A stretch of DNA of 64,000 bases from Candidatus Aenigmatarchaeota archaeon (GTDB lineage Archaea; Aenigmatarchaeota; Aenigmatarchaeia; PWEA01), in NCBI GenBank assembly GCA_046539325.1, contig JBKHHD010000005.1, positions 2,165 through 66,164 on the forward strand, given 5' to 3'. Every line of letters begins with the position of its first letter. Position 1 is the first letter of the stretch. Positions 7,232 through 36,561 of the stretch are shown here, one piece after another. The notes under the pieces were generated by a model. The model had not been told where the DNA came from, made no database searches, and saw only the letters and a program-made list of their open reading frames with translations. The translations under genes were made by a program, and so were the position numbers.

Positions 7232-7540
7232 ATGGCTGCGAAGAAAGGTATTGCCCTTCCTATCAACATGCTTGTAATCCTCGCTGTCGCAGTTATCGTC
7301 CTACTTTCTGTAGTTGCTTTCTTCATGGGACAGTGGGATCCTGGTGCTGTTGAGGCTCAGAATGTTGTCAACAACTGCTGTCACCCTGTTGCTACTAATC
7401 CTACCGAGTACTGTAATGAAAGCTCCTGGGGTGGCGAGGATAACAGTTTACATGACAATGTAACGGTGAGTGGAAATGAGATTGAATGCAGCGAATATGT
7501 GTCCAGCCCAAGTGACTGTCCTGCCTGTACACAGGTTTAA
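7232..7540 (+). CDS. Class III signal peptide (type IV pilin-like) protein with Cys-rich C-terminal domain
   Basis: N-terminus MAAKKG|IALPINMLVILAVAVIVLLSVVAFF has a basic residues-Gly cleavage motif followed by a ~22-residue hydrophobic helix. C-terminal region has 7 Cys and N-x-S/T sequons. Confidence 0.6.
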   Translation: MAAKKGIALPINMLVILAVAVIVLLSVVAFFMGQWDPGAVEAQNVVNNCCHPVATNPTEYCNESSWGGEDNSLHDNVTVSGNEIECSEYVSSPSDCPACTQV

Positions 7541-19358: not shown

Positions 19359-19438
19359 ACACAACTCCTTATATTATACCTACTTGTTAGTTTTTTAATA
19401 GTTTGTTATAAGAACGCTTTGATAATTCTATAGGCTCT

Positions 19439-19792
19439 TTAGTAATTTTCGCAAGGTCTACAAGCCACTTCAATACATACATCGGAATACTGGCCACAAT
19501 CTCTTTCGTGTGTACAACCATCCTGGGTTTTGGGACACGTACTTTCTGTTATATTCCAACTACTGCATACATCCTCACAGTTTATATTATCGCCTCCATT
19601 TCCATCATTTTCTTCACCACCTCCTTCCCCGTCTTCATCTCCGTTTGTCAGGTTGCTTTCAATTTCTTTGAAGGGTGAATTATCCCAGCCATCTAGTAAA
19701 AGGGTTGCTGCTGCTGCTAGGACTATTATCATAATAATTAAACCAAGGAGGCTGCTTATAGTAAATTCAAAACCTTTACTTGAAGAGATCAT
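19439..19792 (-). CDS. Class III signal peptide (pilin-like) small Cys-rich protein
   Basis: MISSSKG|FEFTISSLLGLIIMIIVLAAAATLLL. C-terminal 8 Cys. Confidence 0.55.
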   Translation of the reverse strand: MISSSKGFEFTISSLLGLIIMIIVLAAAATLLLDGWDNSPFKEIESNLTNGDEDGEGGGEENDGNGGDNINCEDVCSSWNITESTCPKTQDGCTHERDCGQYSDVCIEVACRPCENY

Positions 19793-20054
19793 TGTGCCTG
19801 TCTGTTTGGATTTCCTGTCTTCTGATCAATTTTCCATGCGGGGTTATCTGATGAATATCATAATGGGTAGGTGAAATGGATAGCTCAGGTAAAAGATCTT
19901 CAGCATCGCTTGCAGTTTCGTTTACTGCTTCTTCTTTCCAGGCAGAGGTGAAAAGTGCGACGATGGCCAGGAGCACTATTATAGCCAGTGTCAGGACAAC
20001 CACAGCCTTAATAGGCATCGATACTCCTTTTGAAAGTTCAGTATTTTTCTTCAT
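19776..20054 (-). CDS. Class III signal peptide (pilin-like) small protein
   Basis: ATG 20054 gives MKKNTELSKG|VSMPIKAVVVLTLAIIVLLAIVALF. The ATG overlaps the upstream gene's stop as ATGA. Confidence 0.55.
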   Translation of the reverse strand: MKKNTELSKGVSMPIKAVVVLTLAIIVLLAIVALFTSAWKEEAVNETASDAEDLLPELSISPTHYDIHQITPHGKLIRRQEIQTDRHNDLFK

Positions 20055-20338
20055 GTTGGTCCTGTCCCTCCACGGCAACAGATTGCATCTATTTCGCCCC
20101 AATCATCATTCCATTCTTGTTCCTCAATTTCGGTGCATCTATCCGGACCGTTTGTACAACATCCAATTTCCTCGTATTCCTGACAAATAGTTCCTCTGTC
20201 TCCAGTTTCATTCAAATCACCGAGCATACCTTCCGCCGGTTCCATAGCTCCTCCCAAGACTACCGCAAGGACTATGATTGCTAGTATTAAGCCTGGGAGT
20301 GCAGTTTTCCAGCTCAAACCCTTTTTTCTCATCATCAT
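20051..20338 (-). CDS. Class III signal peptide (pilin-like) small Cys-rich protein
   Basis: MMMRKKG|LSWKTALPGLILAIIVLAVVLGG. C-terminal 7 Cys. Confidence 0.55.
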   Translation of the reverse strand: MMMRKKGLSWKTALPGLILAIIVLAVVLGGAMEPAEGMLGDLNETGDRGTICQEYEEIGCCTNGPDRCTEIEEQEWNDDWGEIDAICCRGGTGPT

Positions 20339-20366
20339 AAAGTTACCTCTTCTAATTTAAAATCCT

Positions 20367-20630
20367 TTATGTCATAGTCTCGTCGCAGCAAAATTCAAAG
20401 GGATCCTCTTCTCTTTCCCAGCCCAGTTGATCTTGTTGACATCTCTCTAAGTCTGGTTCCTGGCAGCAGCCCCTCCTTACATACTCTATGCAGTCATTAG
20501 CTCCCTCATGGACGTCGTTCGTCTCATCTCCTCCAAGGGAAAGTGCTAAAAGCAGCACAACAATTACAGCTGAAATCAGAACTAACCCACGTTTCGAGAT
20601 CTTTACCTTTGTACCAGGTATCTTGGGCAT
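20367..20630 (-). CDS. Class III signal peptide (pilin-like) small Cys-rich protein
   Basis: Start at ATG 20630 gives MPKIPGTKVKISKRG|LVLISAVIVVLLLALSLGG; the longer ORF to 20720 is likely an over-call. C-terminal CC..C..CC pattern. Confidence 0.5.
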   Translation of the reverse strand: MPKIPGTKVKISKRGLVLISAVIVVLLLALSLGGDETNDVHEGANDCIEYVRRGCCQEPDLERCQQDQLGWEREEDPFEFCCDETMT

Positions 20631-20667
20631 GGTTAGACAATGGCCCTTATAGTTTAAAACTTTTTGC

Positions 20668-20832
20668 TTAGAAAGGGACGAGGGCATCGAGAAAGTCGAG
20701 CAAACCGTCGATGTTTGCACTTATCGCACCTGTTATTCCTTCAGCAATGATAAACATCACTAGTAAGGCGAGGACCACGTAAACAACTAATTCCATGGCC
20801 TTAATTCCTTTTTTACCTGAAAACCAGTCCAT
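20668..20832 (-). CDS. Mini-pilin: 54 aa class III signal peptide protein (absent from the ORF track, below 60 aa)
   Basis: Hand translation gives MDWFSGKKG|IKAMELVVYVVLALLVMFIIAEGITGAISANIDGLLDFLDALVPF with a TAA stop. It sits directly downstream of a conserved promoter motif (20855-20884). Confidence 0.55.
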   Translation of the reverse strand: MDWFSGKKGIKAMELVVYVVLALLVMFIIAEGITGAISANIDGLLDFLDALVPF

Positions 20833-20854
20833 GCCTAATTATAGTTAACTTTGT

Positions 20855-20884
20855 TTTTTAAGTTTAAAGTGAAATCATTGCATG
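20855..20884 (-). promoter_or_regulatory. Conserved promoter/regulatory motif (minus-strand sense CATGCAATGATTTCACTTTAAACTTAAAAAA), copy 1
   Basis: A near-identical 29-30 nt element recurs at 23248-23276. It contains a TTTAAAC/TTAAAA TATA-like core 23-37 nt upstream of ATG 20832. Confidence 0.5.
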
Positions 20885-20956
20885 TAACCATGATTTTTCT
20901 AGAAATGTTCCGATCTCCTTCTTATCAAATCCTAAACGATGAAAAGCTACGTAAAT

Positions 20957-23161
20957 CTACGTAATAATTCTACATTCAGCACCTCCACATCTTCCCCCGC
21001 CACCGTCATCGTTATCATCTCCATCATCAGAGCCTTCAAGATATTCTGTAACACAAACCTCTCCGCCGTCTTCATCCCCACTCCCTTTGTCGCCTCTATG
21101 CCCGTCGATATCGTCGAGTATGTCACCATTTGCTTCCCAGCCACCACCTTGACCGTCTTGGTCCCAACTCCCGGAGGATACACCATCACCACCATCACCA
21201 CCACATTCATAATGATTAGAATTATCATACGGACAGTCTCCGTTCCCATCATCACCCTCATATTCTGGAGAGCCTGACCATCCACCATCACCGCCTCTTG
21301 CTCCTCCTCCACCACCATATTCAAAAATTGTGGCCTTATGGCCCGCACCACCACCACCGCCGGCTGCAGCTAAAAACTCTTCACTCCCATCATCGTACTT
21401 TAACCATAGTTCGGTTGATCCTCCACCTCCACCTGCTTCACTTCCTCCGTAACCACGATTTCCCCCATCTCCACCGTCGGGTTTTCCATAACCACCACTT
21501 TCCTTGTATCGCTGGCTGCCTGCATTTCCAATAGATATATTAAGGTTTACTTCTTCGTCTATAGTGAATGCACCTTGCACGTAGCCCCCTTCACCACAAT
21601 CTCCATCTTTGCCTGGGTCTCCACCGTCGGCACCATAAACCTCTATCTCGTAGTTCCCGGGGTCGAGTTCCAATGCATCATCACCTACATAGTCGTAACA
21701 TTCTGTGTTCACGCTTAGTTCGGTGAATTCAGCTGTTATCTCTTTGTCTCCGTCCATTTCAACAGTCAGTTCTTCACTTCCATTTCTTTCGTCGCCTGTC
21801 CATTTATCCAGACTCCAATCAGGAATATCCGGGTGTGCTTTGAGGGTTATTTCCTCGCCTTCTGGTACGTAGGTTATTCCAGGAGAAGGGACTGTGTAAC
21901 CTCCTTTTGGATTTTTTACATCTATTTTGAGGACCTTCAATTCTACATCCGTATAGTTCCTCCCACTGTTGAAGGTCCAGGTGTGCTCGAAGTCCCATCC
22001 ATATTCTAGGCCCTCCGTCCTTGTATCTGTGTAAGTGGTCTTACTTTCCATGACTTCTGTTTTCTTCGGTGTTCCAGCTCCTCCATGTGGATCCTTAGTG
22101 ATGCCTGCTGTATCGTAGTTCCAGAAAGAGTTTCCTACAACGGAATCACTGTTACTGTATCCTATAAGTCCATTGATATCATTCCCGCCAGTTACTTGAC
22201 CCGTTGAATATGCATTGTATACTATTCCTGATGCTGACGTGTATCCTACCAGTCCACCTACACACCACCCATTGCCATTGACATGTCCTGTAGAATATGA
22301 ATCTAATACTATCCCACTATTACTTCCCACGAGGCCTCCTGTGTTGTTTTTTTCTCCAGAAATATTACCAGAGGAGTACGATTTAAAAATATCTCCACTG
22401 TTGTATCCTACTAGTCCACCTACGTTACTATGTCCATCAATGGTTGCCGAAGATGAAGAACTTGAAATTTTTCCATCGTTGTATGCTACTAGTCCCCCGG
22501 CCCTTAGGAATGAGTCTTCATCTGAAGCCGTATTTTTGGTAATTATTTTGCCTCTGACCCTTGAATTTAATATATCTCCCCAGTTGACACCTATCAATGC
22601 AGCGACTCTGTCCTCTCCACGGATACTTACATTTACTAGTTCTAAGTTTTTGATTTCTGATGAATCATTGGTATGAGCGAAAAGTGCCGCGTCTTGACTA
22701 GACCTATCTATGTGTAAATCCGTTATTTTATGCCCTTGTCCGTGTAATTCCCCCTTAAATTGGTGGTCAGGCCAGTCGCCTATTGGTTCAAACCCATCGC
22801 CATTGTTCCACTCCTTTGTTCCACTGCAGTCTATGTCGTTTTCGAGATAGTAATTTCCTCCTAGGTCCTCGTTTATATTCTGAAGTTCTTGACAGCTTTC
22901 TATTGCTGTGGCATCATCTGGCGGATCTCCGGTCCTGTCCTTTGGGTGTATGTTCTGCCATTGAAGTATAGGATACTTTGTTCTGTGCTCTACTAGGTCC
23001 TCACTCCGTCTTTCACCAGTATCCGTTAGGTCACTGGAACCTTCTTGTAGCATGTCGCCTAGCTCTGTGAAAATAACACCAACTACCAGAAGTGCTATTA
23101 CGGCTCCTACTACTAGTCCAAGGGTGAATTCAACTCCAGAACGGCCGAGGAACATTGACAT
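20957..23161 (-). CDS. Large class III signal peptide surface protein with GLUG-type repeats and Gly/Asp-rich C-terminal tail
   Basis: N-terminus MSMFLGRSG|VEFTLGLVVGAVIALLVVGVIF. Central repeats (GGLVGYNSGDI, TGGLVGSNSGIV, VGGLVGYTSASGIV, INGLIGYSNSD) followed by SFWNYDTAGI, as in the GLUG motif family. Last ~200 aa are low-complexity G/D/E (GGGGGAGHK..., GGDGGDG...). Confidence 0.6.
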   Translation of the reverse strand: MSMFLGRSGVEFTLGLVVGAVIALLVVGVIFTELGDMLQEGSSDLTDTGERRSEDLVEHRTKYPILQWQNIHPKDRTGDPPDDATAIESCQELQNINEDLGGNYYLENDIDCSGTKEWNNGDGFEPIGDWPDHQFKGELHGQGHKITDLHIDRSSQDAALFAHTNDSSEIKNLELVNVSIRGEDRVAALIGVNWGDILNSRVRGKIITKNTASDEDSFLRAGGLVAYNDGKISSSSSSATIDGHSNVGGLVGYNSGDIFKSYSSGNISGEKNNTGGLVGSNSGIVLDSYSTGHVNGNGWCVGGLVGYTSASGIVYNAYSTGQVTGGNDINGLIGYSNSDSVVGNSFWNYDTAGITKDPHGGAGTPKKTEVMESKTTYTDTRTEGLEYGWDFEHTWTFNSGRNYTDVELKVLKIDVKNPKGGYTVPSPGITYVPEGEEITLKAHPDIPDWSLDKWTGDERNGSEELTVEMDGDKEITAEFTELSVNTECYDYVGDDALELDPGNYEIEVYGADGGDPGKDGDCGEGGYVQGAFTIDEEVNLNISIGNAGSQRYKESGGYGKPDGGDGGNRGYGGSEAGGGGGSTELWLKYDDGSEEFLAAAGGGGGAGHKATIFEYGGGGGARGGDGGWSGSPEYEGDDGNGDCPYDNSNHYECGGDGGDGVSSGSWDQDGQGGGWEANGDILDDIDGHRGDKGSGDEDGGEVCVTEYLEGSDDGDDNDDGGGGRCGGAECRIIT

Positions 23162-23247
23162 GGAAACTCCTATGTACTAATTGATTGTCTTGATTTTAAA
23201 GTTTTAGTAAGCTTTCTCCTAGATCTTGGTGCGGTTTTCTCCTTTAA

Positions 23248-23276
23248 TTTTAAGTCTAAAGTTAAATCATTGCATG
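23248..23276 (-). promoter_or_regulatory. Conserved promoter/regulatory motif, copy 2 (minus-strand sense CATGCAATGATTTAACTTTAGACTTAAAA)
   Basis: Matches the 20855-20884 element at about 26 of 29 positions. Lies ~90 nt upstream of ATG 23161, with GGAG 7 nt before the ATG. Confidence 0.5.
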
Positions 23277-23320
23277 GTCAACTATTCGGAGAAACTATGC
23301 TCCCAAAAAACTCTCCTTTG

Positions 23321-24415
23321 CTAAGGATCATCCTGACAAACACATCTATCATGCATCCCTGACACACTTTTACAGTCCTTCCACTCGTACTCGCCTTTTG
23401 TTGCTCCTGTTTTTATACACTTATAATCTTGGTCACATTCGTCACCAGAATCGGAGCCATCGCCACATCCATCACCGCTCTCATCCACCGATTCACAGGC
23501 CATTACTTCGCCCTCACAACACATCTTCTGGTTACCATCCCACGTTGCACCTGAGTCCTTGCACTCATCACCAACTTCGCATTCGTCTTCGTCACACCCA
23601 TCCTCATCATCCTCGTCACCATTATCTCTTGAATAAGATGAGGGTTGAATAGTTTGTGAAGAGCTGTATTCGTCCTTGATCAATACCTTTGGTTTTTGCA
23701 TATTACCTTTTAGATCAACGGAGTAGGAAATATCATATACCTCGACATTGCATTTTACTTTTGTCATAGCATAGCCACTTTTTGTATCGCCCCATGAATT
23801 GATACAATTGTCTGCATTATCGTCTGGTTCCCATTTACGCCTGTCGGAAGAAACATCTTCTTGATAACAGGGATTTTCTGATTGTTGAACCACTTCCTTG
23901 TATCCCCTGCACTGACAGTACTGGTCTACATCATCCCAGGAACCTGTCATGCTCGAGCCACATTCGCCCCAGCCTGTAAAATCCCGGGCATTAACGTCTA
24001 CAGGGAAGTCAACCACCACAGGTTCTAAAGACTTCTCCACATGCAAATAGTTAACACTGAGGCTCATATACTGCTGAGGGTCCTCTCCGTCACCGGTCAT
24101 TTCTGTACCGTTTAGGCTGTCTAAATAGCTCTTAATTTTTTCCTCTATGTCGTCAATTCCAGGTTCACCATCTTCCTCCGAATAGGCTTCTCTTGTTCCA
24201 AGCCACACTGCATCATCGACGAGATCTCTTGAACTATCATACCTCAACTTCGCGTTTATGGTTTCTGATTGCTCCAGGCCTATTCGACCTGCACCAGTAG
24301 ATCCAGTAACCAGCACTGTAAATGCCACCGCCAGTCCTCCCCCTACGATTACTGCACTGACTACTCCAACCACTAATAAGCTTATAGCTCCACTTTCGGA
24401 TGACATTTTTGACAT
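23321..24415 (-). CDS. Class III signal peptide (pilin-like) protein with acidic, Cys-rich extracellular region
   Basis: ATG 24415 gives MSKMSSESG|AISLLVVGVVSAVIVGGGLAVAFTVLV. More than 25 Cys in CxC/CC clusters in the C-terminal half; many D/E. Confidence 0.55.
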   Translation of the reverse strand: MSKMSSESGAISLLVVGVVSAVIVGGGLAVAFTVLVTGSTGAGRIGLEQSETINAKLRYDSSRDLVDDAVWLGTREAYSEEDGEPGIDDIEEKIKSYLDSLNGTEMTGDGEDPQQYMSLSVNYLHVEKSLEPVVVDFPVDVNARDFTGWGECGSSMTGSWDDVDQYCQCRGYKEVVQQSENPCYQEDVSSDRRKWEPDDNADNCINSWGDTKSGYAMTKVKCNVEVYDISYSVDLKGNMQKPKVLIKDEYSSSQTIQPSSYSRDNGDEDDEDGCDEDECEVGDECKDSGATWDGNQKMCCEGEVMACESVDESGDGCGDGSDSGDECDQDYKCIKTGATKGEYEWKDCKSVSGMHDRCVCQDDP

Positions 24416-24468
24416 TTTATCAATCCTTGTTTTATTTACTGTAAATTCTATCTGACTTGTTAATTTAT

Positions 24469-24936
24469 TCAACCGCCTGCATTTTTATCGACAAGTATTG
24501 CCCTACCAAGCTTCTCATTTCCTAATAGGATGGTTCTTGAGGCCACTTCTTTTCTTGGATCATCCGGTCTTCCATGGATATATGTATTGCCTTGGTATTC
24601 AAAACGAATATAATAGTTGTCACCATTCTCCCCCTGAAATTTATTCTCCAAATCTTCTATTTCATCGTCTATGTCATCATTACGGCCGTTGTAGGTGTAG
24701 ATATAATCTATAAACTTCCTGCGGACTGATTCGCCGTTATCGTCCTCCGTTCTCAGGAAGGCACTAAGTACTATTTCATCTGTATGTCTATCGATCTCTT
24801 CAACTTCGATCTCGACATCCCTCTTTAGTTCAACAAAGTAGTTTATCGTGAAAAGTACGAGAAAAAACATAGCAGTGAATATAAGTGTGGCTATGAGTAT
24901 CGTGAACTGCCCTTTTTTGTTTTCTCTATTTATCAT
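24469..24936 (-). CDS. Class III signal peptide (pilin-like) protein
   Basis: MINRENKKG|QFTILIATLIFTAMFFLVLFTI. Confidence 0.55.
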   Translation of the reverse strand: MINRENKKGQFTILIATLIFTAMFFLVLFTINYFVELKRDVEIEVEEIDRHTDEIVLSAFLRTEDDNGESVRRKFIDYIYTYNGRNDDIDDEIEDLENKFQGENGDNYYIRFEYQGNTYIHGRPDDPRKEVASRTILLGNEKLGRAILVDKNAGG

Positions 24937-24946
24937 GTTTCATCTC

Positions 24947-25924
24947 CTAAACCTTTTTCCAGTAAGCTTCTGTGCTTGATCCAGAGTGGACATCACTTAC
25001 ACATTCATACATATCTGCACACTCATTTCCAACGTATTCGAGGTCGCACTTCTCTACTGTCCCGTTGTCGCAACATATCTCTAACTCTTCTCCCCGGGTA
25101 TCATATACCTCAGTGTGATAGAGATCAATATCCTCAAGAATGGTCCGAGAGTAGGTACAGGGTTCTTCACCTGCTTCTACAAAATAACTGGTTTCATCAC
25201 CCTTTTTTACTGCTGAAGTTTCAACATTTTCGTCGAATTCCATCTCTGGTACCTTCAGATTGTAGTCTTTGAATATATAGGTTGCCTTTCCCTTGTCGTC
25301 TATCCTGGCATCTATTTTTAACCTATCACCTGTTTTTCCTTTATCAGACTGGATAGTATGATTTTTATCGAACATAGTTTCCAATTTGAGAGGCTCGCCA
25401 TCTTCATACCAGGCTATCTTCCCTGTCCTGGTAGTAGAGGGTCCGAAATGTGGTGGATGTACCATGTAAAAAGTTGCGGTCCCGAGATTGTTTCCAGATC
25501 CCGTGTCTATAGTCACAGGCACATCCCACTCTGTGATATCTCCTACGACAATATCGCTGAGATCATTACCAAAGCTGTAGTCTTTGTTTTTTTCATGGTC
25601 TTCGACCTCTACGTAAGTCCAGACTGTTGGGTGGTGTGCACAGTCGAGAGCCTCGGTCCCGTCCTTTCTGTTGAGTTTAGCTTCGGAAAGAACTGCCATT
25701 TCGCCTGTCGAGAGGCAATCGGGCGAGGAAAGGATTTCGGCCATTACACTGTTGGCCTGAACCTTGCCCATACTGAAGGAGTACCCTTCAACAGCTATGT
25801 CTGTGGGTGCTATAATGAAATAGTAAAATACAAATACAAAACCTACCAATACTATAGTGTATAGAAGATACCAGATGAAGTCTCCTCCTGAAAGCCCTTT
25901 CACTCTTTCTTTAAAATTCAGCAT
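24947..25924 (-). CDS. Class III signal peptide (pilin-like) protein
   Basis: MLNFKERVKG|LSGGDFIWYLLYTIVLVGFVFVFYYFII. C-terminal Cys cluster. 14-nt overlap with the upstream gene. Confidence 0.5.
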   Translation of the reverse strand: MLNFKERVKGLSGGDFIWYLLYTIVLVGFVFVFYYFIIAPTDIAVEGYSFSMGKVQANSVMAEILSSPDCLSTGEMAVLSEAKLNRKDGTEALDCAHHPTVWTYVEVEDHEKNKDYSFGNDLSDIVVGDITEWDVPVTIDTGSGNNLGTATFYMVHPPHFGPSTTRTGKIAWYEDGEPLKLETMFDKNHTIQSDKGKTGDRLKIDARIDDKGKATYIFKDYNLKVPEMEFDENVETSAVKKGDETSYFVEAGEEPCTYSRTILEDIDLYHTEVYDTRGEELEICCDNGTVEKCDLEYVGNECADMYECVSDVHSGSSTEAYWKKV

Positions 25925-27353
25925 AATCCTCTACCACCTTATTGAGCTCACCGTCTTTTATCTCGATAACACTTCCACATTTTATGGTTCGTTCTGGCAT
26001 GTACCACGTATCTTCAAAGTCCCAGCCTCTGCTTTCAGAAAAGGTTTCTTTACTTGTCATTTCTGCCATGAAAAGGGGCTCTCCTGCGCCACTGTCCTGG
26101 TCCAGGGATATTCCTGCTGTGGCCATGTTCCAGAAAGAGCTTTCAACAGTAGCCTCACTTGAACCTATCAGTCCACCAAATTCTGCTGATCCTTCTGAAG
26201 GATTGACAGTTCCAGCTGAATAAGAGTTATTAATGGGATTTGATGATGAAGCCTGATGGCCTACTAATCCCCCTATTTTAAGCGTACGTAGATCCGCTTC
26301 GATATGAATGTTTGATGTGCTGTAAGAGTTAGAAATACCTCCATCGAGATGTGTTACACCTACAAGTCCCCCGACTCTATCTCCTTCGGCTTTAACCATA
26401 CCCGCCGAGAATGATTCTGAGATATCTCCATGTGAAAATGAACCTGCTAGGCCACCGACCTTTTCTTCCCCTTTGACATAGGCCTTGCTATAGGATTTGC
26501 TTATATCTGAGGTTTTCTGCGAACTAGATCCAACTAGTCCGCCTACAGAACTACTTCCTTGTACTGAACCGGTGGTGTGTGATTTTTTTATATCTGAGAA
26601 ATAAGCATTTCCGACTAATCCACCAACTGTATTTCCACCCTTGATTTTTACATCTTCAACACCGATGTTTCTTATTTCGCCCTCGGAAACGTACCCAAAC
26701 AAGCCAACATTATCTTCATTTGCTCTGTCAATATATAAGCCGCTTATTGTATGTCCTTGGCCGTCGAACTCCCCCATGAAGTAATTATGGTTTTTCTGTT
26801 CTCCTATCGGCTCCCAACCCTGTCCTCCGTTAGCGTCTCTTCCTGCGACCTCTTCATAACCGGGGGTATCCGAATCCAGATTATTCTTCAGGACGTAATT
26901 TTTATTTAAGTCATTTCTTATATCATCCAGATCATTCCAGTTTCTTATAGGGACGGAGTCTTCATGTTCACCTTCTATTTCTTCGTTGTTCTTTTCCCAA
27001 CGATGTTTTGGAAAGGACGGCCCCTTATGGAAGTTCCAGTAGGTTTTAGTGGTTAAATTATCTTCGTCTTCAACATCCAGTCTCGAACGTACAGCATCCT
27101 TTGTAAAGGTGATCTCACAGTCTGAAGTAAGCAAGGTTCTCTTTTCGATAGTAGTTTCTTCAGGAAAAGCCGAAGTGATCGTCATGTCGCTCGCGAGCTC
27201 TACGTTCTGATGCTGTATTTGGTTCTCTGCGCCCAATGAAATGAGCTCTGTTACCATATCCCCGCCGACAACCATCACCAGTAGCATTAGAATTACTATA
27301 ACAACGAGGCCGAGGGACTTTCCAATAGCGACTCCTTTCGTCCATGGGGACAT
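25911..27353 (-). CDS. Class III signal peptide surface protein with GLUG-type repeats
   Basis: MSPWTKG|VAIGKSLGLVVIVILMLLVMVVGG. Repeats VGGLVGNAYFSDI, VGGLVGSSSQ, VGGLAGSFSHGDI, VGGLVGVTHLDGGI, IGGLVGHQASS, FGGLIGSSEA, then SFWNMATAGIS. Paralog of the 20957-23161 product. Confidence 0.6.
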   Translation of the reverse strand: MSPWTKGVAIGKSLGLVVIVILMLLVMVVGGDMVTELISLGAENQIQHQNVELASDMTITSAFPEETTIEKRTLLTSDCEITFTKDAVRSRLDVEDEDNLTTKTYWNFHKGPSFPKHRWEKNNEEIEGEHEDSVPIRNWNDLDDIRNDLNKNYVLKNNLDSDTPGYEEVAGRDANGGQGWEPIGEQKNHNYFMGEFDGQGHTISGLYIDRANEDNVGLFGYVSEGEIRNIGVEDVKIKGGNTVGGLVGNAYFSDIKKSHTTGSVQGSSSVGGLVGSSSQKTSDISKSYSKAYVKGEEKVGGLAGSFSHGDISESFSAGMVKAEGDRVGGLVGVTHLDGGISNSYSTSNIHIEADLRTLKIGGLVGHQASSSNPINNSYSAGTVNPSEGSAEFGGLIGSSEATVESSFWNMATAGISLDQDSGAGEPLFMAEMTSKETFSESRGWDFEDTWYMPERTIKCGSVIEIKDGELNKVVEDYAEF

Positions 27354-27399
27354 AATAGTTTAATTATATCTTTTGTTTAAAATTGTTTATATTCCCCTT

Positions 27400-27798
27400 T
27401 CAGTTCTCCGGAACGCTTGGGTTAAGTGTATACTGGCATGCAATATATTCGTTACCTTTTTTGCACATCCCATAATAGTTACTTTCTTCATCTAGAACTC
27501 CTTTCCAGCCCTCGGGACAGAAACAGTCTGAGTCTTCTACAGCGTTATATTCGTTGTTAGGCGTTCTCACTGCATCCACGCACGTTACGTTCCATTCATC
27601 GTCCTCTTTTGTGCTATTAGGTCTACAGTTTCCATCTCTGATACAGGCAGCAGGGTTATCATTATGCTGTTCACAGCCTATGTCCATATCGGAGAAATTC
27701 ATCGCAAGAAGGACTATTACCACGAGTGCCAGACTTAGCTTTATCATTAGGAAAAGTATTTCTTCCATTGACTTTGAAGTTCCTTTATTAGAGATCAT
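27400..27798 (-). CDS. Class III signal peptide (pilin-like) Cys-rich protein
   Basis: MISNKG|TSKSMEEILFLMIKLSLALVVIVLLAMNF. 10 Cys in the C-terminal domain. Confidence 0.5.
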   Translation of the reverse strand: MISNKGTSKSMEEILFLMIKLSLALVVIVLLAMNFSDMDIGCEQHNDNPAACIRDGNCRPNSTKEDDEWNVTCVDAVRTPNNEYNAVEDSDCFCPEGWKGVLDEESNYYGMCKKGNEYIACQYTLNPSVPEN

Positions 27799-27799
27799 A

Positions 27800-27946
27800 T
27801 CAATACTCCAGCACTGACAATGCTGTTTCTATAGTAGGCTCGAGTGTATAGTAAATTATACCTACTATAAGGGCCAGTAAGATAAGAATTGCAATTATTT
27901 TCAGAGGATCCTTTGTTGTATTTGATATATCATAAAAAGTTGACAT
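27800..27946 (-). CDS. Possible 48 aa single-TM protein (not in ORF track)
   Basis: Hand translation gives MSTFYDISNTTKDPLKIIAILILLALIVGIIYYTLEPTIETALSVLEY. Tightly packed, with 1-2 nt gaps to both neighbours in the same orientation. Confidence 0.3.
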   Translation of the reverse strand: MSTFYDISNTTKDPLKIIAILILLALIVGIIYYTLEPTIETALSVLEY

Positions 27947-27947
27947 T

Positions 27948-28094
27948 TTATATTCCCCTAATTCTATGTATCAGTAGATCTGATATATTTCCCAAAGAGC
28001 CTTCTGCAGTTAGAATTAAAGCCGTGGCAATCGCGAGAATTATAAGTGCCCCTATCAGAAACAATATCGTACTGCTGAATCCCTTTCTTTTCAT
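27948..28094 (-). CDS. Mini-pilin: 48 aa class III signal peptide protein
   Basis: ATG 28094 gives MKRKG|FSSTILFLIGALIILAIATALILTAEGSLGNISDLLIHRIRGI. The longer ORF call to 28145 would overlap the next mini-pilin. Confidence 0.5.
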   Translation of the reverse strand: MKRKGFSSTILFLIGALIILAIATALILTAEGSLGNISDLLIHRIRGI

Positions 28095-28102
28095 CCTTTC
28101 AC

Positions 28103-28276
28103 CTAGATCAGATTGCCTAAAAACTGCATCATGTTTCCTATCCATCCTTCACCGGAGCCGATTATATCAGTCCCAATTAAAAAGAGCATTCCAACGAGTA
28201 TTACAACTGCTATTATTGCAACGAGCACTTCTAAAGACATCTTCCCCTTTTTAAGAAATCTAGCTTTGTTCAGCAT
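28103..28276 (-). CDS. Mini-pilin: 57 aa class III signal peptide protein (not in ORF track)
   Basis: Hand translation gives MLNKARFLKKG|KMSLEVLVAIIAVVILVGMLFLIGTDIIGSGEGWIGNMMQFLGNLI with a TAG stop at 28103-28105. Confidence 0.5.
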   Translation of the reverse strand: MLNKARFLKKGKMSLEVLVAIIAVVILVGMLFLIGTDIIGSGEGWIGNMMQFLGNLI

Positions 28277-28319
28277 CTTCGCTCTACCTTTATTTTATCC
28301 TCTCCTGCATTTAAATATG

Positions 28320-29435
28320 TCAACTGCCTTCTGATTGGTATTCCTCGTCTACCTCCCAGTAATATTCTTTCTCTGCTAAACAAAGGCACCATGCTTCACC
28401 AGCTTCTTCTTCGCAGAACTCTTCTTCGGAGTCAATCTTCTCATAGCCCCTTGGAGCGTCCTTTTGTTCGAAACAACCCGAGGACCAGATTATTTCATCT
28501 TTGGCGCTGCACTGGTCTGCACAGGCGGCGTCAAGTTCTGTGCCTCCCTCTCTTGAATCCCTTTCCTTTGAACTGCAGACTACAGGAGCATAGAGTTCAA
28601 AGGGATGGGTACCTTCCCAGTATCTCCGTAGTAACATGAGTTGGAATCTCCTCTTTGAGTTGGGGATTTTTATATCAACGCCTTTACCTATAGCGAAGTC
28701 AGAAACCGGATCGCCATCTATCTGAATATCATCTCCTGAGTCCGAGGCCATCCACCTCACATCGCCCATTTCACTAAGAGTGCTACCCTCCTTGTTCCAG
28801 AGAACTGTCCCTTCTTCAAAGTTCCATAGAGCACACCTACCGCTTTCGAAAGTAGAAAAAATTACGCAGCCTTCGTGACTGTCTAGATTACTTAGACTGT
28901 TTACCTCATTTTGACCTACTTCATCCAGTGCGTCTTTACATGCTCCTTTTGTTTCGCCACCAGAGCTGTGTGTATATATCATATCTCCTTCGCTGTCAAT
29001 AAGTTCATACTCCAGGTGTTTTCCAGGATGTTGATCTGTTAAGTGGAACTCACCGAGATTGTCGTCGTTTCCATCCCTTACATAGGAGTGTATGTATTTT
29101 CCTTGTCTATCGGATACACCACAGTAGCAGCCTGCAGATTCTACGTCTATGGCGAAATCTGCTATCCTTTCCTGGGCGATGGTATCCGTCCCTACAGGAT
29201 TGCCCCACTTTCCTCGGGATACCCCACTTACAAGACCTTCCCAGACCCTGTCCTTCAAGAAGCTGTGTCCTTCGATGCTTGCCTGTATATCACAGTATGT
29301 CGGGCATACAACGTCCTTACCAATAATCTGATTTCCTACACGGCCTATTATTTTTCCTCCCAGAGAACCTGTTATAATTATTATGATGATAACGAAAACT
29401 ATGATCAGCATTGCACCAGACATGCCTTTTTTCAT
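28320..29435 (-). CDS. Class III signal peptide protein, member 1 of a tandem Cys-rich paralog triplet
   Basis: ATG 29435 gives MKKG|MSGAMLIIVFVIIIIIITGSLGG. Shares GCYCGVSDRQGKYIH, EFHLTDQHPGKHLEY, YAPVVCSS and C-terminal CLCLAEKEYYWEVDEEY with the next two genes. Confidence 0.6.
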   Translation of the reverse strand: MKKGMSGAMLIIVFVIIIIIITGSLGGKIIGRVGNQIIGKDVVCPTYCDIQASIEGHSFLKDRVWEGLVSGVSRGKWGNPVGTDTIAQERIADFAIDVESAGCYCGVSDRQGKYIHSYVRDGNDDNLGEFHLTDQHPGKHLEYELIDSEGDMIYTHSSGGETKGACKDALDEVGQNEVNSLSNLDSHEGCVIFSTFESGRCALWNFEEGTVLWNKEGSTLSEMGDVRWMASDSGDDIQIDGDPVSDFAIGKGVDIKIPNSKRRFQLMLLRRYWEGTHPFELYAPVVCSSKERDSREGGTELDAACADQCSAKDEIIWSSGCFEQKDAPRGYEKIDSEEEFCEEEAGEAWCLCLAEKEYYWEVDEEYQSEGS

Positions 29436-30901: not shown

Positions 30902-31108
30902 TCAGAATGCTATACCGAATTTATCCGTGACGAAATAAACTATTACAAATACTATCAATACCAGTATTAATATCGCTATGGCGGATAAGATCGAACTTTC
31001 GCTTGCTTCCTGCAAAAATACACACCAAATAACGTTTTCGAACGGAGTTAAATATATTTTGTCCTTGCCTTTGCCTCGTCTACTCGTCTTTAGGTTCGTA
31101 CTCTTCAT
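30902..31108 (-). CDS. Possible small C-terminally anchored membrane protein (uncertain start)
   Basis: The ORF in this gap ends ...SSILSAIAILILVLIVFVIVYFVTDKFGIAF. The upstream part of the 140 aa call overlaps the next gene out of frame, so only the 3' portion is proposed. Confidence 0.2.
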   Translation of the reverse strand: MKSTNLKTSRRGKGKDKIYLTPFENVIWCVFLQEASESSILSAIAILILVLIVFVIVYFVTDKFGIAF

Positions 31109-32213: not shown

Positions 32214-34313
32214 TCACAGTCCTTCACCCAGAAGTCCAGCTATCTGTGTACCGAAGACCTCCCAGACAACTACAAGTGAAAAGGAGTAAACGATTACCCC
32301 GATGAGTATCATAAATCCTGCAGCCTTCCTCTTAGCTACCTTGTCGCCCGGTCCGTTCTCCACACCTGCAGTAAGCATCGCCAGTAGGTAGGAGGTCTGT
32401 ATAACGTAAATTCCTACAACGATCTGAAGTATGTATAAGGGCATCATTTCACCCGCGGCTCCCCATCCGCCGACAAGCATACCGTCCATGCCTATTCCCG
32501 CCATGCCTCCTATCCCTACATCACCTTCGGTTGCCTGGCCCAATCCCTCCATCGCTTCTCCTATGCCCCGGAATATAGACATCATTATCGCGGCCATCGC
32601 GACCGAGACACCTGCTACGAACGGGCCAAGGAAGGAACCTAGAAACTGCATGGAAGTTGTCTCCGAAGAAAGCATATTTTTGAGGTCTCCCTCTATTTCG
32701 TCCAACTGTTCGAGATACTTGGATATGGAGATGGCCGATCTTGAAGCTATTCTCGATCCTTTTTCCGTGGCATCGACGACTATCTTCATGACTGAGGTCA
32801 CAAGGTCCGATGGATATTGCCATACAGCACCGAAGTTCTTATCAAAGAATGCGTTTCTAAGGTCCATTCCCCCTTTCCTCATATTTTTAACAACCTTTCT
32901 GAACATGTTAGATATCTCCAGGTCTTCGTTTCTCTGGACTGTGTCTTCTGCGGCTCTCTCTATGGGCTTCCCGAGGTCCATTCTGTTGCCGAGAGAAAAC
33001 AACGCCTTCGAAAACTCGTCCTCTATGTTCTTTATACTCTCCCGTAGCTCGATCTTTGCCCTCGTATCCAGAAGAAAGTAGCTGGATGGTCCGATCGCGA
33101 TACCTCCGGTGATAACTAGCGAGGTCACTATCTGTCTGAAGAGGTCCTCACCTGCATGGAATTTCACCAAGTAGATCCCTAGAAGTATTACAGGAAGGGA
33201 TAGAATAAGGGATATGGGCCATATTTTGATGGTTTTATCTCCCAGTTTCATCATTCCCGAAGGGATATGGTCTGGATGTTTTGATATATCAGGCGTCGAA
33301 AATCCCATTGGCCTGTACTCCAAAGTCCTTTTACCTGTCAGGTATATTATCAGCGGGAGAATTATGTTGTACCCGATAAAGAGGAAAGCTGGCCTTACAG
33401 TATCCTCTAGCATGAGTATTATTATGGGAAACATAACCAGTACCATGATAGGAAGCATTATACCGAGCATATGTATGATCATAATAGGCAGTTCCAGCTT
33501 GTTGGAGTATTCCTTCATCATCTCCCTCGAACCGGACATCATCGTGTTTATACCTTCGTCAAGCATAGCCTTCCTCTTCTCCTTCGACTGTTCCATGGAG
33601 TTCTGGATAACCTGCATGGCCTCAACGAAGGGTTTGTTGTCCTGCCATTTCTCCAGGTAGTCGGACAACGCTTCTTTCATGGATATATATTTTCCTGTCT
33701 CGACATCCCAGAGCATCTTCTTGAAGTCGAGGGAAAGGGGTTCTCCGAGGTGCTCTGCAGTGAACTTTATAGCTCCTTCAAGGTTTGGCGATGTTCGCAT
33801 ATATATGACCATATATATTATGGCCAGCATTATCTGATCAGCAGCTTTAACTCGGAAAAGACGTGCTTGGGAGTTCGGATATTCAGCCAGCAGGTAGATT
33901 GCAACGGCCCCGAGCATGAATATCAGGAGACCGAAAACTATAGAAGCTATTCCGAAGGCCATCAGGATTATGCCTGCCAAGAAGATCATAAGCCCAGAAA
34001 GAACAGCCAAGGAATAGGCTCCCGGGGGCGTTATCTGCATGTATGCCATATCTATTGATCGCTGCAGCTCCTCCTTTTTGTCTTCAGATGGTTCAATCAC
34101 AACTATGTCTTCGGCTATGTTGCAGAGCTTTTCGTACAGCGACTTCTCTCTGTGTTTTTCCTCTTCTTTGATGAAGGTGTTGTACTCCCTGGATGTAAAG
34201 GTCCTATTTTCCTCACCGGGTAGCTTCAAATCCTTTTTTCCTTCCTCAACTATGTTGTCTATCTCTTTCTCCCATTCATCCTCGAAATTGTCCTCAGGCA
34301 TTCTTGAATTCAC
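32214..34313 (-). CDS. Polytopic membrane platform protein of a type IV pilus/archaellum-like system (FlaJ/TadC/GspF family)
   Basis: 699 aa with two blocks of multiple TM helices separated by cytoplasmic domains, the size and architecture of FlaJ/TadBC fusions. Immediately downstream of, and overlapping, the FlaI-like ATPase gene. Confidence 0.6.
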   Translation of the reverse strand: MNSRMPEDNFEDEWEKEIDNIVEEGKKDLKLPGEENRTFTSREYNTFIKEEEKHREKSLYEKLCNIAEDIVVIEPSEDKKEELQRSIDMAYMQITPPGAYSLAVLSGLMIFLAGIILMAFGIASIVFGLLIFMLGAVAIYLLAEYPNSQARLFRVKAADQIMLAIIYMVIYMRTSPNLEGAIKFTAEHLGEPLSLDFKKMLWDVETGKYISMKEALSDYLEKWQDNKPFVEAMQVIQNSMEQSKEKRKAMLDEGINTMMSGSREMMKEYSNKLELPIMIIHMLGIMLPIMVLVMFPIIILMLEDTVRPAFLFIGYNIILPLIIYLTGKRTLEYRPMGFSTPDISKHPDHIPSGMMKLGDKTIKIWPISLILSLPVILLGIYLVKFHAGEDLFRQIVTSLVITGGIAIGPSSYFLLDTRAKIELRESIKNIEDEFSKALFSLGNRMDLGKPIERAAEDTVQRNEDLEISNMFRKVVKNMRKGGMDLRNAFFDKNFGAVWQYPSDLVTSVMKIVVDATEKGSRIASRSAISISKYLEQLDEIEGDLKNMLSSETTSMQFLGSFLGPFVAGVSVAMAAIMMSIFRGIGEAMEGLGQATEGDVGIGGMAGIGMDGMLVGGWGAAGEMMPLYILQIVVGIYVIQTSYLLAMLTAGVENGPGDKVAKRKAAGFMILIGVIVYSFSLVVVWEVFGTQIAGLLGEGL

Positions 34314-36561
34314 CGGACTTTATCTGCTCCTTGAGCCATTCCTCCCATCTTTCAAAGGTCTCATCGGGATCAACGTATCCCACTTCGTCACTCACCTCGT
34401 CCATTATTAGTCGGAACTTACTGTTGCTCTTTACGACGAAGGGAGCTTCCATCAGCTCTTCGTTACCGGTTTCAAGCGCGTAGTCGCTTATGGCCTTCTT
34501 TACCTTTCCTCTAAGTTCTATGTTTTCCCAGACACGGTCCCATCTACCGGCCCATTCCTTCACCTGTGATGATATCTTGTTCAGGACCTGTGATTCGCCG
34601 TTTAGAAGCGTATCAGTGGGCTTGAGTCTATCTTCCTCGGCCGAGTACTCCATGAGAGGTACGAATCCGTCTTCGTCCCTTGGATCCTCGGACCAGTGCT
34701 TCCTTACTTCGGTGACACCCGTCACTCTTCTTATTTCTTGAAGGCCAGAGGCGCTTTTGATTCTATTGCATATAACAATTAGATCAGTCGCCTTGAAGGA
34801 AGTCTTTGGAACGCCTAGATCGTGTACTACACGGTCGAAGAGACCGTAGGCGGACTCGCCATGTATTGTTCCTGCCACGGTCTTAGCCATGGCCCCTATA
34901 CGCATCGCCTCGTAAAGCGCCTGAGCCTCTGTACTCCTTACTTCACCTATTATAAGTGCTGAGTCACCAAGACGTAGCGCAGTTCTTATTGATTCTGATG
35001 CAGGGAGTTCCGTCTCGACCTGCGTAATTACTGAGCGTGACTTCAGGCGCTGTGCGTCGTAGCCCAGCTTCTTCAGAGTTTTTACAGGAAGCTCTAGTGT
35101 ATCCTCGGATGTTATGACCCTCCAGTCTCTCTTCATCTCGAGCATGGACGCACCGAGCAGGGAAGTCTTTCCAGAGCCTCTTCCACCACCGATAAGGAAC
35201 GTCCTTCCGCCATCTATCACAAAGCTCATGAGTCCTGCGAATAGCGGGCTTATGTAACCTATATCTGGCTGTAAGTAGAGGGGGTAGGTCCACGGATCTT
35301 CCCTGTGTCTTCTCAGAGCTAAGCCAAGGCCTTCAGGAGCCAGTGTCGGAGCTATGACGGTTACCCTCGCATTTCCACCGGGTACTTCTACTGATGTATC
35401 TAGAACTGGGTTTGCCTCATCAAGAGGCCTACCACTTGAAAGTCTTAGCTTCGTCGCCCAGCTTTCAGCATCGTCCTGTGTAGGAATTATGTTGGTTCTG
35501 CATTCGCCATAGTCTTCGTGATTTATGAAGATAGGTTTACTCCCCAGAGGTGAGTTTATGTATATATCCTGGACCTTTTCGTCTTCAAGTATTGCCTCAA
35601 GAATACCTAGTCCTCCTGTATATCTACTTAGTATTGAATTCAGCCTTTCAATCTGCTCAGGTTCCAGGTCTGTGCCTTCCCTTTCGGCTATATCCTTTAT
35701 GAGATCCTTCCCTATGGAGGAGAAAACCTCCCTCGATCTCTCTGACTCGGCAAACTCTGTAGTCTCTGGTCTGTGCTCGCTCAGATACCTCTGCGCAGCG
35801 TCAAGTATACTGTATTCACCTTCTTCTAGCTTGAACTCCGGTGGCGAGAAGTGATACAGCGGTCTTGTTTCGTCAGGAAGATTATATACTTCAATATCAG
35901 AGCTGCCAACTTCGTAGTGATCTATCATCCCGCCTTCTTCTGGTGTCTGTTTCATATACTTCGTTCGCATGAAGTTGGGCCTGACTGAAGGGTAGAAGAG
36001 TTCACGGTATGCATCTCTCTGTCCTGGGTGGTATCCAGAAAGCTCACCCTTGACTTCCTTTATCATCCTGGTCTGTTCCAACCTTTCTTTTATCGGTAGA
36101 AGAACTTCGTTCAGGTAAGTTTCCTTGCACTCTTTCTGGGGACCTCCTTCCTTGGTCTGGATCCTAACATGCCTTATTTTCCTTTTAAGGTGGATATAAG
36201 CTCCTACCGGGTCCTTCCTAAGCTCGTCCATTGCAAGTCCTTGAAGCTCCGAGTACTTTTCCTGGAAGTACTGATTACAGTCCGGAACTTCCAATCTTTC
36301 AAGCTTCCTGAGACCGAGTTCTTTCATCACGTCTTTCAGAACTTCGGCTATCTCTACCAGAAGCTTCGTCTGTTCGTAGGGATACTCGTACTCGCGGCTG
36401 TTTTTGAAAAGTACTGTCTTTACTCCCTTGACCTCCATTATCTTGTCTATGGTATTTGCCATACATTCTTCGTAGTCAGCGACACTACTTCCGTAGATAC
36501 ATCCGGAGCAGTTTACCTCTATTCTCTTCTCATCTTCATCGTATTCGTAGTCACAGGGCAT
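34294..36561 (-). CDS. Type II/IV secretion system ATPase (FlaI/PilB/VirB11 superfamily) with long N-terminal extension
   Basis: Walker A GGGRGSGKTS, Asp box/Walker B DSALIIGEVR, His box TIHGES, in the C-terminal ~350 aa. Total 755 aa. First gene of the minus-strand locus. Confidence 0.8.
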   Translation of the reverse strand: MPCDYEYDEDEKRIEVNCSGCIYGSSVADYEECMANTIDKIMEVKGVKTVLFKNSREYEYPYEQTKLLVEIAEVLKDVMKELGLRKLERLEVPDCNQYFQEKYSELQGLAMDELRKDPVGAYIHLKRKIRHVRIQTKEGGPQKECKETYLNEVLLPIKERLEQTRMIKEVKGELSGYHPGQRDAYRELFYPSVRPNFMRTKYMKQTPEEGGMIDHYEVGSSDIEVYNLPDETRPLYHFSPPEFKLEEGEYSILDAAQRYLSEHRPETTEFAESERSREVFSSIGKDLIKDIAEREGTDLEPEQIERLNSILSRYTGGLGILEAILEDEKVQDIYINSPLGSKPIFINHEDYGECRTNIIPTQDDAESWATKLRLSSGRPLDEANPVLDTSVEVPGGNARVTVIAPTLAPEGLGLALRRHREDPWTYPLYLQPDIGYISPLFAGLMSFVIDGGRTFLIGGGRGSGKTSLLGASMLEMKRDWRVITSEDTLELPVKTLKKLGYDAQRLKSRSVITQVETELPASESIRTALRLGDSALIIGEVRSTEAQALYEAMRIGAMAKTVAGTIHGESAYGLFDRVVHDLGVPKTSFKATDLIVICNRIKSASGLQEIRRVTGVTEVRKHWSEDPRDEDGFVPLMEYSAEEDRLKPTDTLLNGESQVLNKISSQVKEWAGRWDRVWENIELRGKVKKAISDYALETGNEELMEAPFVVKSNSKFRLIMDEVSDEVGYVDPDETFERWEEWLKEQIKSGEFKNA

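Follow-up and report, generated by a model that had tools for sequence, protein, structure and literature searches.

Which proteins does a DPANN archaeon build into its type IV filaments? The cognate pilins of nanoarchaeal type IV pilus (T4P) ATPases "could not be identified" (PMC4858521), and pilins have been reported missing from nanoarchaeal and DPANN T4P clusters (PMC4858521, PMC9563170). The question is posed again by a 64,000-nucleotide stretch of a Candidatus Aenigmatarchaeota metagenome-assembled genome (MAG; contig JBKHHD010000005.1, positions 2,165 to 66,164; hereafter the window), the minus strand of which carries an 18-kb type IV filament locus that houses four very small open reading frames (ORFs), termed here P1 to P4. 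An earlier reading of the letters of this DNA (the sequence-only reading) had proposed that P1, P2 and P3 are major structural pilins. We find that all four are genuine genes under purifying selection, and that P1–P3 resemble headless pilins (i.e., pilins that lack a globular domain) in shape and genomic context; we put at about 0.5 the probability that P1–P3 undergo processing and become part of a filament, possibly with P1 as its major subunit.

The mini-genes lie downstream of the genes for an assembly ATPase and a platform protein, amid about 15 others whose products have [KR]-G and a hydrophobic N-terminus. The ATPase and platform genes are 4–14 kb upstream of P1–P3 on the same strand, a synteny that is retained in relatives. 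The genes on which the argument turns are as follows (a slash marks the predicted cleavage site):

34294..36561, minus strand: type IV filament assembly ATPase, 755 aa (Pfam T2SSE, 1.9e-13)
32214..34313, minus strand: platform protein, TadC/FlaJ-like, eight predicted transmembrane (TM) segments (Pfam T2SSF, 7.7e-7)
20668..20832, minus strand: P1, prepilin-like, 54 aa, MDWFSGKKG/IKAMELVV..., predicted mature length 45 aa (ORF; NCBI and Logan calls)
28103..28276, minus strand: P2, prepilin-like, 57 aa, MLNKARFLKKG/KMSLEVLV..., predicted mature length 46 aa (ORF; first gene of the P2-P3-P4-132aa unit)
27948..28094, minus strand: P3, prepilin-like, 48 aa, MKRKG/FSSTILF..., predicted mature length 43 aa (internal ATG at 28094)
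27800..27946, minus strand: P4, single-pass membrane mini-protein, 48 aa, with a conserved YYxLEPTIET tail (ORF; no class III cleavage motif)
30902..31015, minus strand: possible fifth mini-gene, 37 aa, TTG start, single TM segment, low confidence (position and length match to an ORF in L005)

The ATPase also matches the NCBIfam FlaI and TadA-family models, both below their cut-offs.

The mini-ORFs are genuine genes

The sequence-only reading had described P1–P3 and the fourth ORF at these positions, on this strand and at these lengths, and it had staked its proposal on the reading frames being kept in relatives. Both points hold. With the platform protein as query, we fetched related loci from genome and metagenome collections. 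In the locus represented by L005/L015, whose platform protein is 69% identical, ORFs of 57, 53, 48 and 55 aa match P2, P3, P4 and P1, respectively, in position and order: the positional equivalent of P2 occupies 15994-16167 of L005, the orthologs of P3 and P4 are recovered by phmmer (E 1e-5 and 9e-10), and the 55-aa ORF at the position of P1 (21110-21277) has, as P1 does in the window, a large prepilin-like gene on one side and on the other a Cys-rich gene with CIEY[VI]RRGCC. A 1.35-kb contig from the Joint Genome Institute (L022), closer to the window than L005, contains a 56-aa ortholog of P2 (P0003, 67% identity), a 48-aa ortholog of P3 and the start of P4. For P1, an exhaustive HMMER search of 1.84 billion representatives yielded the homologs P0005 (59% identity, E 2.6e-12) and P0006 (46% identity, E 3e-4), each of exactly 54 aa. 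The contigs that encode these homologs (L023 and L024) have in common a downstream gene beginning MP[KD]IPG, and in L024 a string of Cys-rich genes of 87–98 aa continues downstream, as it does in the window. Gene order and lengths are retained across L005/L015, L022, L023 and L024. A word-indexed search of 5.8 billion proteins returned only self matches for P1 and P3, and three of the four mini-ORFs had no match in it beyond their own copies.

Proportions of nonsynonymous (pN) and synonymous (pS) differences, obtained as Nei-Gojobori counts, were 0.106 and 0.725 for P3 against L022, where 25 of 37 differences fall at codon position 3; 0.234 and 0.653 for P2 against L022; and 0.093 and 0.455 for P4 against the partial L022 ortholog (26 codons). 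Comparisons of P1 with its homologs gave pN of 0.26–0.39 and pS of 0.82–0.89, with 36 of the 64 differences from L023 at codon position 3. In up to four lineages, the proposed frame is the only one that is free of stops in every lineage. Because position and length are kept, a single frame stays open, and substitutions are mostly synonymous, P1–P4 are genuine genes under purifying selection.

The same comparisons bear on where the genes start. P3 had been proposed to begin at an internal ATG, and this 48-aa form is upheld: the 65-aa form (ORF 27948-28145) was rejected, the upstream extension containing a stop and no ATG in L022, and a Shine-Dalgarno-like motif (GGTGA/GGTGG) stands 4 nt before the 48-aa ATG in both the window and L022. 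P2 starts at Met1, since L022 has Ile at the position of the internal Met. A 42-aa form of P1, which is the truncated NCBI call in a near-identical sister MAG, was also rejected: neither P0006 nor the L005 ortholog has a Met at that place, and the conservation of the leader plus KG across homologs counts against it as well. On the same grounds, we rejected TTAACTATAATTAG, just upstream of the P1 ATG, as a TATA box for a start at Met12.

In the public gene calls for the contig (GCA_046540935.1, JBKHEG010000001.1), hypothetical proteins of 54, 57 and 48 aa correspond to P1, P2 and P3, respectively; P4 has no NCBI call and appears in the Logan set only. The possible fifth mini-gene is called in neither of these public sets. 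It sits in the 184-nt gap between the genes for a 363-aa and a 451-aa prepilin-like protein, and an ATG-started ORF of 37 aa occupies the equivalent place in L005 (14440-14553), with 11 of 37 residues identical, including a C-terminal FGI; the similarity between the two is not significant by phmmer.

P1–P3 carry a predicted class III-like cleavage site

Archaeal class III signal peptides need Gly, Ala or Ser at position -1, a charged residue at -2, and a hydrophobic domain after the site (PMC4371748). P1, P2 and P3 have Gly at -1 (G9, G11 and G5, respectively), which is invariant in all orthologs; they have Lys at -2, a position that is K in orthologs as well, except for E in the L005 counterpart of P2; and a hydrophobic domain of about 20 residues follows the site in each. 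Within the first five mature residues, P1 and P2 contain both Lys and Glu, after which come 16–22 uncharged residues. The invariant residues of the P1 family are M1, K8, G9, L21, L23 and G35, and the leader ahead of K8 varies. The -1 Gly is one of two invariant columns in the P2 and P3 families, in which leader length ranges from 4 to 10 residues, and the conserved parts of P3 are KG/F and a C-terminal DLLxxRxRG. This pattern of conservation supports a functional class III-like site, as predicted for P1–P3. No such site occurs in P4 or in the possible fifth mini-protein, and P4, judged by class III criteria, is not a pilin because it has no cleavage motif.

The motif recurs throughout the locus. 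Scanning for M-x(0-13)-[KR]G-x(0-7) followed by a hydrophobic run of at least 16 residues, with 30 Markov-shuffled windows as control, we counted 15 matching ORFs in the window, versus zero in the shuffled set; 13 of the 15 are on the minus strand within 18507-32171, P1, P2 and P3 among them. Nearly all genes down to position 18507 begin with a short basic leader, then [KR]-G (sometimes S-G), then a hydrophobic stretch. P1–P3 also show the genomic association with a T4P ATPase and platform that is looked for in pilin genes.

Predicted helix-only proteins that belong to new families

AlphaFold2, run on single sequences, models P1 as one helix spanning residues 7–51 (predicted local distance difference test [pLDDT] 84.7), and P2 as helices at residues 2–9, 15–39 and 42–56 (pLDDT 78.6), a break coinciding exactly with the KG site. 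Both models are all-helical, and the predicted mature lengths of 45, 46 and 43 aa for P1, P2 and P3 are of headless-pilin size. The C-terminal 18 residues are amphipathic in P1 and P2 (hydrophobic moment, muH, 0.36 and 0.34), at values reached by about 2% of shuffles; the tail of P3 is not significantly amphipathic.

In these respects P1–P3 resemble Tad/Flp (type IVc) pilins. Tad pilins have 40–60 aa, and mature PilA of Caulobacter crescentus (PDB 8U1K) is a 45-residue helix, which forms a filament of about 50 Å with archaeal-type packing (PMC10710030). Like P1–P3, such pilins have no globular C-terminal domain, consist of essentially one continuous helix, and combine a hydrophobic N-terminal half with a polar C-terminal end; like the minis, they are encoded with a TadA-like ATPase and a TadB/C-like platform, and an archaeal derivation of the Tad system has been proposed. 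However, the minis lack the Flp motif (Glu5-Tyr6, Gly7), with E5-L6-V7 in P1, E5-V6-L7 in P2 and no Glu in P3, and they have no Flp_Fap match: none was found at E<=1 among 46 minis of related loci, of which one distant member had a sub-threshold Flp1_like match (E 0.009). The host of the minis is an archaeon with a single membrane, and each locus has several distinct minis in fixed order, versus one Flp plus TadE/TadF. Finally, processing and assembly are predictions for the minis.

The second likeness is to archaeal pilins. EpdE (MMP1685) of Methanococcus maripaludis and other pilins of about 70 aa from clade-1/System 1 T4P are, like the minis, small and headless, with a class III signal peptide, and the System 1 locus is likewise rich in further prepilin-like (minor pilin) genes. 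The major pilins of the Epd family (arCOG06620) have about 70 aa, no globular domain and stand-alone genes, and System 1 T4P have been reported in some DPANN (PMC4858521; bioRxiv 10.64898/2026.04.22.720090). In contrast to EpdE-type pilins, which are EppA substrates with a conserved Gln at +1 and Glu at +5 (PMC4371748), P1, P2 and P3 have I, K and F at +1, and KG/Q is found only in a neighboring 155-aa gene (24469-24936). The minis are also shorter (48–57 aa versus about 70 aa) and encoded inside the locus, whereas EpdE-type genes stand alone, and the platform here is one 699-aa gene, where System 1 has two.

Two further comparisons concern truncated and minor pilins. In the split pilin PilA-N/PilA-C of Geobacter sulfurreducens, PilA-N is a helix-only pilin that, like the minis, is encoded in a T4P locus beside small secreted proteins (PMC10710030). 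By analogy, a head protein encoded by a separate gene could bind to the conserved tails of the minis. PilA-N has no sequence similarity to the minis and, at 61 aa, is longer. Minor pilins of T4P, of type II secretion systems and of Com systems share with the minis an arrangement in which several distinct prepilin-like genes, in conserved order and translationally coupled, form one operon together with the machinery genes. However, the known minor pilins possess globular domains; they are not helix-only proteins of 43–46 residues. P1–P3 match neither Pfam Class_IIIsignal nor any NCBIfam model, and by their sequences they are new families, yet similar to headless pilins in shape and context. The kind of protein, a headless type IV pilin-like protein in an archaeal T4P locus, is already known; these families match no model of it.

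Promoter motifs and predicted operon structure

The start regions of P1 and P2 contain the following signals:

20833..20872, minus strand: P1 promoter and short 5' region, with TATA-box-like CTTTAAAC at 20862-20869
28309..28318, minus strand: TATA-box-like ATATTTAAAT upstream of P2, kept in the window, L022 and L005 (as CTTTAAAC) at equal distance from the start

The distance from the box at 20862-20869 to the P1 ATG is 30–37 nt. Over the 40 nt preceding P1, identity to L024 (2158-2199) is 82% (32 of 39 aligned bases), versus 50% for the coding sequence, and the P1 coding sequences of the window and L024 are saturated at synonymous sites. Besides the TATA-like box, the conserved upstream block has a second part, TTAAYTATAATTAG, which adjoins the ATG. 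A YTTTAAAH box also occurs 25–45 nt upstream of four other starts in the locus. This pattern is not enriched across the window (22 matches versus 24 expected), and it is informative only through its placement with respect to starts and through its retention by orthologs.

Downstream of P2, the genes are tightly packed: P3, P4 and a 132-aa gene begin 8, 1 and 1 nt after the preceding stop, with Shine-Dalgarno-like motifs. From spacing and motifs, we infer that P1 is its own (monocistronic) transcription unit, and that P2 through P4 belong, with the 132-aa gene, to one operon with translational coupling.

Shaft, minor subunit or membrane accessory?

In the reading we favor, P1–P3 would be synthesized with a short leader of positive charge, and the hydrophobic segment of about 20 residues would insert them N-in/C-out. 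A class III signal peptidase of the PibD/FlaK type, encoded outside the window, would cut after the conserved [K/R]-Gly, leaving all-helical subunits of 45, 46 and 43 residues that the ATPase (34294-36561) and platform (32214-34313) would lift from the membrane into a filament. The hydrophobic N-terminal halves would make up the filament core, and the short acidic amphipathic C-tails would face outward or lie on partner subunits, an arrangement known from bacterial Tad/Flp pili. For the role of an abundant Flp-like subunit that forms the shaft, the best candidate is P1, since it appears to be monocistronic, is preceded by a conserved TATA-type promoter of its own and is one of a conserved family of 54-aa proteins. 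A role as low-abundance minor or priming subunits is more likely for P2, P3 and P4 (the last not a pilin), since co-transcription and translational coupling are predicted for them. The large prepilin-like proteins with GLUG domains, described below, would probably serve in adhesion, presumably to a host cell. Cleavage, assembly, relative abundance and the adhesive role are predictions of this scheme.

How far does this bear out the proposal that P1–P3 are major structural pilins? Much of what the sequence-only reading had put forward stands: the three are real genes in a filament locus, each has the residues expected of a class III signal peptide, P1 lies directly behind a conserved promoter motif, and the description of the minis as a signal peptide and little else agrees with the AlphaFold2 models of P1 and P2, in which one helix would follow the signal peptide. 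The claim that all three are major pilins is not supported. P1–P3 are distinct ortholog groups in conserved order, which speaks against all three forming the shaft, and the P2-P3-P4-132aa operon, with its short gaps and Shine-Dalgarno-like motifs, would fit stoichiometrically produced minor or assembly subunits better.

Other observations weigh against the favored reading more broadly. No prepilin peptidase (A24) was found in the window or the fetched loci by a GxGD[..]K regular expression over six frames and by Pfam searches of multi-TM ORFs, so that class III cleavage of P1–P3 is itself a prediction. The Lys at +2 in P1 and at +1 in P2 departs from the FlaFind core pattern. Glu at +5 is shared by P1 and P2, but their homologs do not keep it: those of P1 have K or N there, and it is missing from the L005 equivalent of P2; we therefore rejected it as a bacterial or EppA-like hallmark. 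Even among archaeal class III proteins, Glu at +5 marks only a subset, the EppA substrates, which also require Gln at +1 (PMC4371748). When the minis, the 46 minis of related loci and the remaining small prepilin-like genes were scanned against Pfam and NCBIfam, only sub-threshold TM noise resulted, and a phmmer search of P1–P3 against all PDB chains gave nothing meaningful; a Foldseek search of the P1 model against PDB gave 0 matches, which is expected for a lone helix and uninformative. The C-terminal tails of the minis are more conserved than their TM segments, and this suggests specific partner contacts, as in minor or assembly subunits, over a fast-varying exposed shaft surface. A further point is that a family of Cys-rich pilin-like proteins of about 90–140 aa, with members at 7232-7540 and 19776-20054 (92 aa), is more widely conserved and is multi-copy in distant DPANN. 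Its stand-alone member is:

7232..7540, plus strand: Cys-rich prepilin-like gene, 102 aa, 8 Cys, MAAKKG/IALPINMLVILA..., stand-alone, with TATA-like TTTTAAAT at 7192-7199

By phmmer, this gene has multi-copy pilin-like counterparts in L006, L007, L009, L019 and L020 (E 1e-8 to 1e-3). It is adjoined by a small acidic gene, which we take to be Alba-like.

These Cys-rich proteins provide the alternative that survives best: the shaft would be built from Cys-rich prepilin-like proteins of about 80–100 mature residues (the product of 7232-7540, that of 19776-20054 and possibly those of 20367-20630, 20051-20338 and 19439-19792), and the minis would be only minor, priming, assembly or base-retained subunits. 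We regard this as possible, though less probable than the favored reading. The 102-aa gene stands alone behind its own TATA-like box, an arrangement described for archaeal major pilins (Makarova et al., PMC4858521), and the multi-copy tandem arrays in the five distant loci are the usual pattern of a major-pilin repertoire, while the minis, with their distinct ortholog groups, fixed order, conserved tails and tight operon coupling, resemble sets of minor pilins. Yet P1 lies outside the coupled operon, keeps its 54-aa length, and shows much stronger conservation in its promoter than in its coding sequence. As a rule, minor pilins equal or exceed the major pilin in size, which the minis would not do next to a Cys-rich shaft. 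For Tad pili, it is proven that headless pilins form the shaft (PMC10710030).

It is unlikely, in our assessment, that the minis are never part of a filament and instead remain uncleaved, as single-pass membrane micro-proteins that are accessory or regulatory to the platform and ATPase, with KG contributing only to a positive-inside anchor. Such a role would suit P4 and the possible fifth mini-protein, which are conserved in the operon without a cleavage motif, and would agree with the lack of a peptidase gene nearby and with the conserved C-terminal motifs, which suggest fixed protein contacts. Against it, the -1 Gly is invariant while the leader varies, and a generic positive-inside signal needs no invariant Gly; about 15 other proteins of the locus also begin with the motif, among them large ones with extracellular domains.

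Far less probable still is a Sec-type signal peptide, which signal peptidase I would cut past the hydrophobic region (near AEG/) to free peptides of about 20 residues. The N-termini do combine a positively charged n-region and a hydrophobic core with small residues behind it (A-E-G, G-S-G). However, the hydrophobic stretch of 20–25 residues has the length of a TM anchor, typical Sec h-regions being shorter, and the locus is that of a type IV filament system with the KG motif throughout.

That the ORFs are chance open frames in intergenic DNA, as their shortness and the scarcity of word-index matches might suggest, is already refuted by the comparative data: the purifying selection and codon-position-3 bias of substitutions, the frames, synteny and start signals conserved in relatives, and the absence of the motif from shuffled sequence.

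Mini-ORFs in other DPANN filament loci

Beyond the close relatives, we compared 11 DPANN lineages whose platform proteins are 31–37% identical and which are assigned to Nanoarchaeia/Nanoarchaeota or Aenigmatarchaeota. In nine of them, the coding strand of the pilus locus contains TM mini-ORFs of 35–73 aa, many of which have [KR][GAS] sites. The mini-ORFs begin directly after the platform gene in most of the nine lineages, and 2–3 kb downstream in the rest. Their conservation extends across independent contigs: L006, L016 and L020, for instance, share a ...FGEQAA.VF[ND] tail, and L010, L017 and L018 share MKG.V..Y minis. Single-linkage clustering of all minis joined 35 of them, which we rejected as proof of homology, judging the cluster to be driven by TM composition.

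Several of these loci contain tandem runs of three to four overlapping mini-ORFs (L007 16864-17340, with 4-nt ATGA-type overlaps; L019 18401-19128; L006/L016/L020 at about 12100-13560). Tandem mini-ORFs in distant DPANN fall into two classes, those with [KR][GAS] sites and those that start with ME... and have no site, the latter class paralleling P4 and the possible fifth mini-gene.

The prepilin-like block and its surroundings

P1–P4 are embedded in a block of larger prepilin-like genes, recognized by their N-termini, by GLUG, ALK_LTK_GRD and Flg_new_2 domains, and by synteny with L005/L015:

18507..32171, minus strand: block of prepilin-like genes around P1–P4, with the members below
31080-32171, minus strand: prepilin-like gene
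29541-30896, minus strand: prepilin-like gene
28320-29435, minus strand: prepilin-like gene
27400-27798, minus strand: prepilin-like gene
25911-27353, minus strand: prepilin-like gene with GLUG
24947-25924, minus strand: prepilin-like gene
24469-24936, minus strand: prepilin-like gene
23321-24406, minus strand: prepilin-like gene
20957-23161, minus strand: prepilin-like gene with GLUG and a Gly-rich domain
20367-20630, minus strand: prepilin-like gene
20051-20338, minus strand: prepilin-like gene
19776-20054, minus strand: prepilin-like gene
19439-19792, minus strand: prepilin-like gene
18507-19358, minus strand: prepilin-like gene

Two of the encoded proteins (480 and 734 aa) have GLUG adhesin-type repeats, and one gene encodes an InlB B-repeat-like domain. 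At 20957-23161 and 25911-27353, class III-type N-termini are joined to the GLUG repeats, and the 734-aa protein has in addition an ALK/LTK-type glycine-rich domain and an IgA1-protease-N-like region. By their domains, these proteins look like modular adhesin-pilins, plausibly for host attachment. Three large paralogous prepilin-like proteins (363, 451 and 371 aa) with many Cys are encoded at 28320-32171; they have in common CYCGV...GKY[IM]H and C-terminal EKEYYWEVDEEY motifs, have three counterparts in L005, and contain no known domain.

Immediately upstream of the pilus ATPase region, five tandem genes at 38012-40731 (minus strand) encode apparently paralogous membrane proteins of 162–184 aa, four of which have about five predicted TM segments. 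None matches a Pfam family at its cut-off; similar genes stand beside the ATPase in L004, L006 and L007, and the proteins may be an unrecognized component of this DPANN filament system. Divergent from the ATPase gene, two genes at 36668-37970 (plus strand) encode acidic coiled-coil proteins of 134 and 298 aa, which have only weak, coiled-coil-type Pfam matches, including a faint one to FlaC_arch, and which may be regulatory or scaffold partners.

The window contains archaeal markers, namely type III RuBisCO, AMP phosphorylase and digeranylgeranylglycerophospholipid reductase. The AMP phosphorylase and type III RuBisCO genes are nearly adjacent at 8033-11036 (minus strand), with a gap of about 260 nt, and form a nucleotide-salvage pair typical of DPANN and other archaea. 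The proteins of the window are visibly acidic, which suggests a salt-adapted lineage.

Meaning for DPANN filaments

DPANN archaea are tiny symbionts that need to attach to a host, and type IV filaments are prime candidates for making this contact. For the pilins reported missing from their filament clusters, the locus supplies candidates that are conserved and for which the starts are defined and the cleavage sites and promoters predicted. Such mini-genes are missed or cut by gene callers and by libraries of hidden Markov models: P4 is uncalled by NCBI, and P1 is cut to 42 aa in the sister MAG. The predicted mature N-termini are exact targets for metaproteomics.

A broader picture, which we offer as a speculation and consider somewhat doubtful, is that DPANN archaea of the Aenigmatarchaeota and Nanoarchaeia type build Tad-like, all-helical headless pili from locus-encoded subunits of 43–46 residues, with a P1-type shaft and with GLUG adhesin-pilins that attach to the host, and that these subunits are the missing cognate pilins. 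If true, the bacterial Flp pilus would have an archaeal, single-membrane counterpart in such a filament, which might also be a living relative of the ancestor of the Flp pilus. If P1-type proteins do form the shaft, the headless design known from Tad/Flp pili and EpdE would extend to DPANN, which would bear on the proposed archaeal origin of Tad pili.

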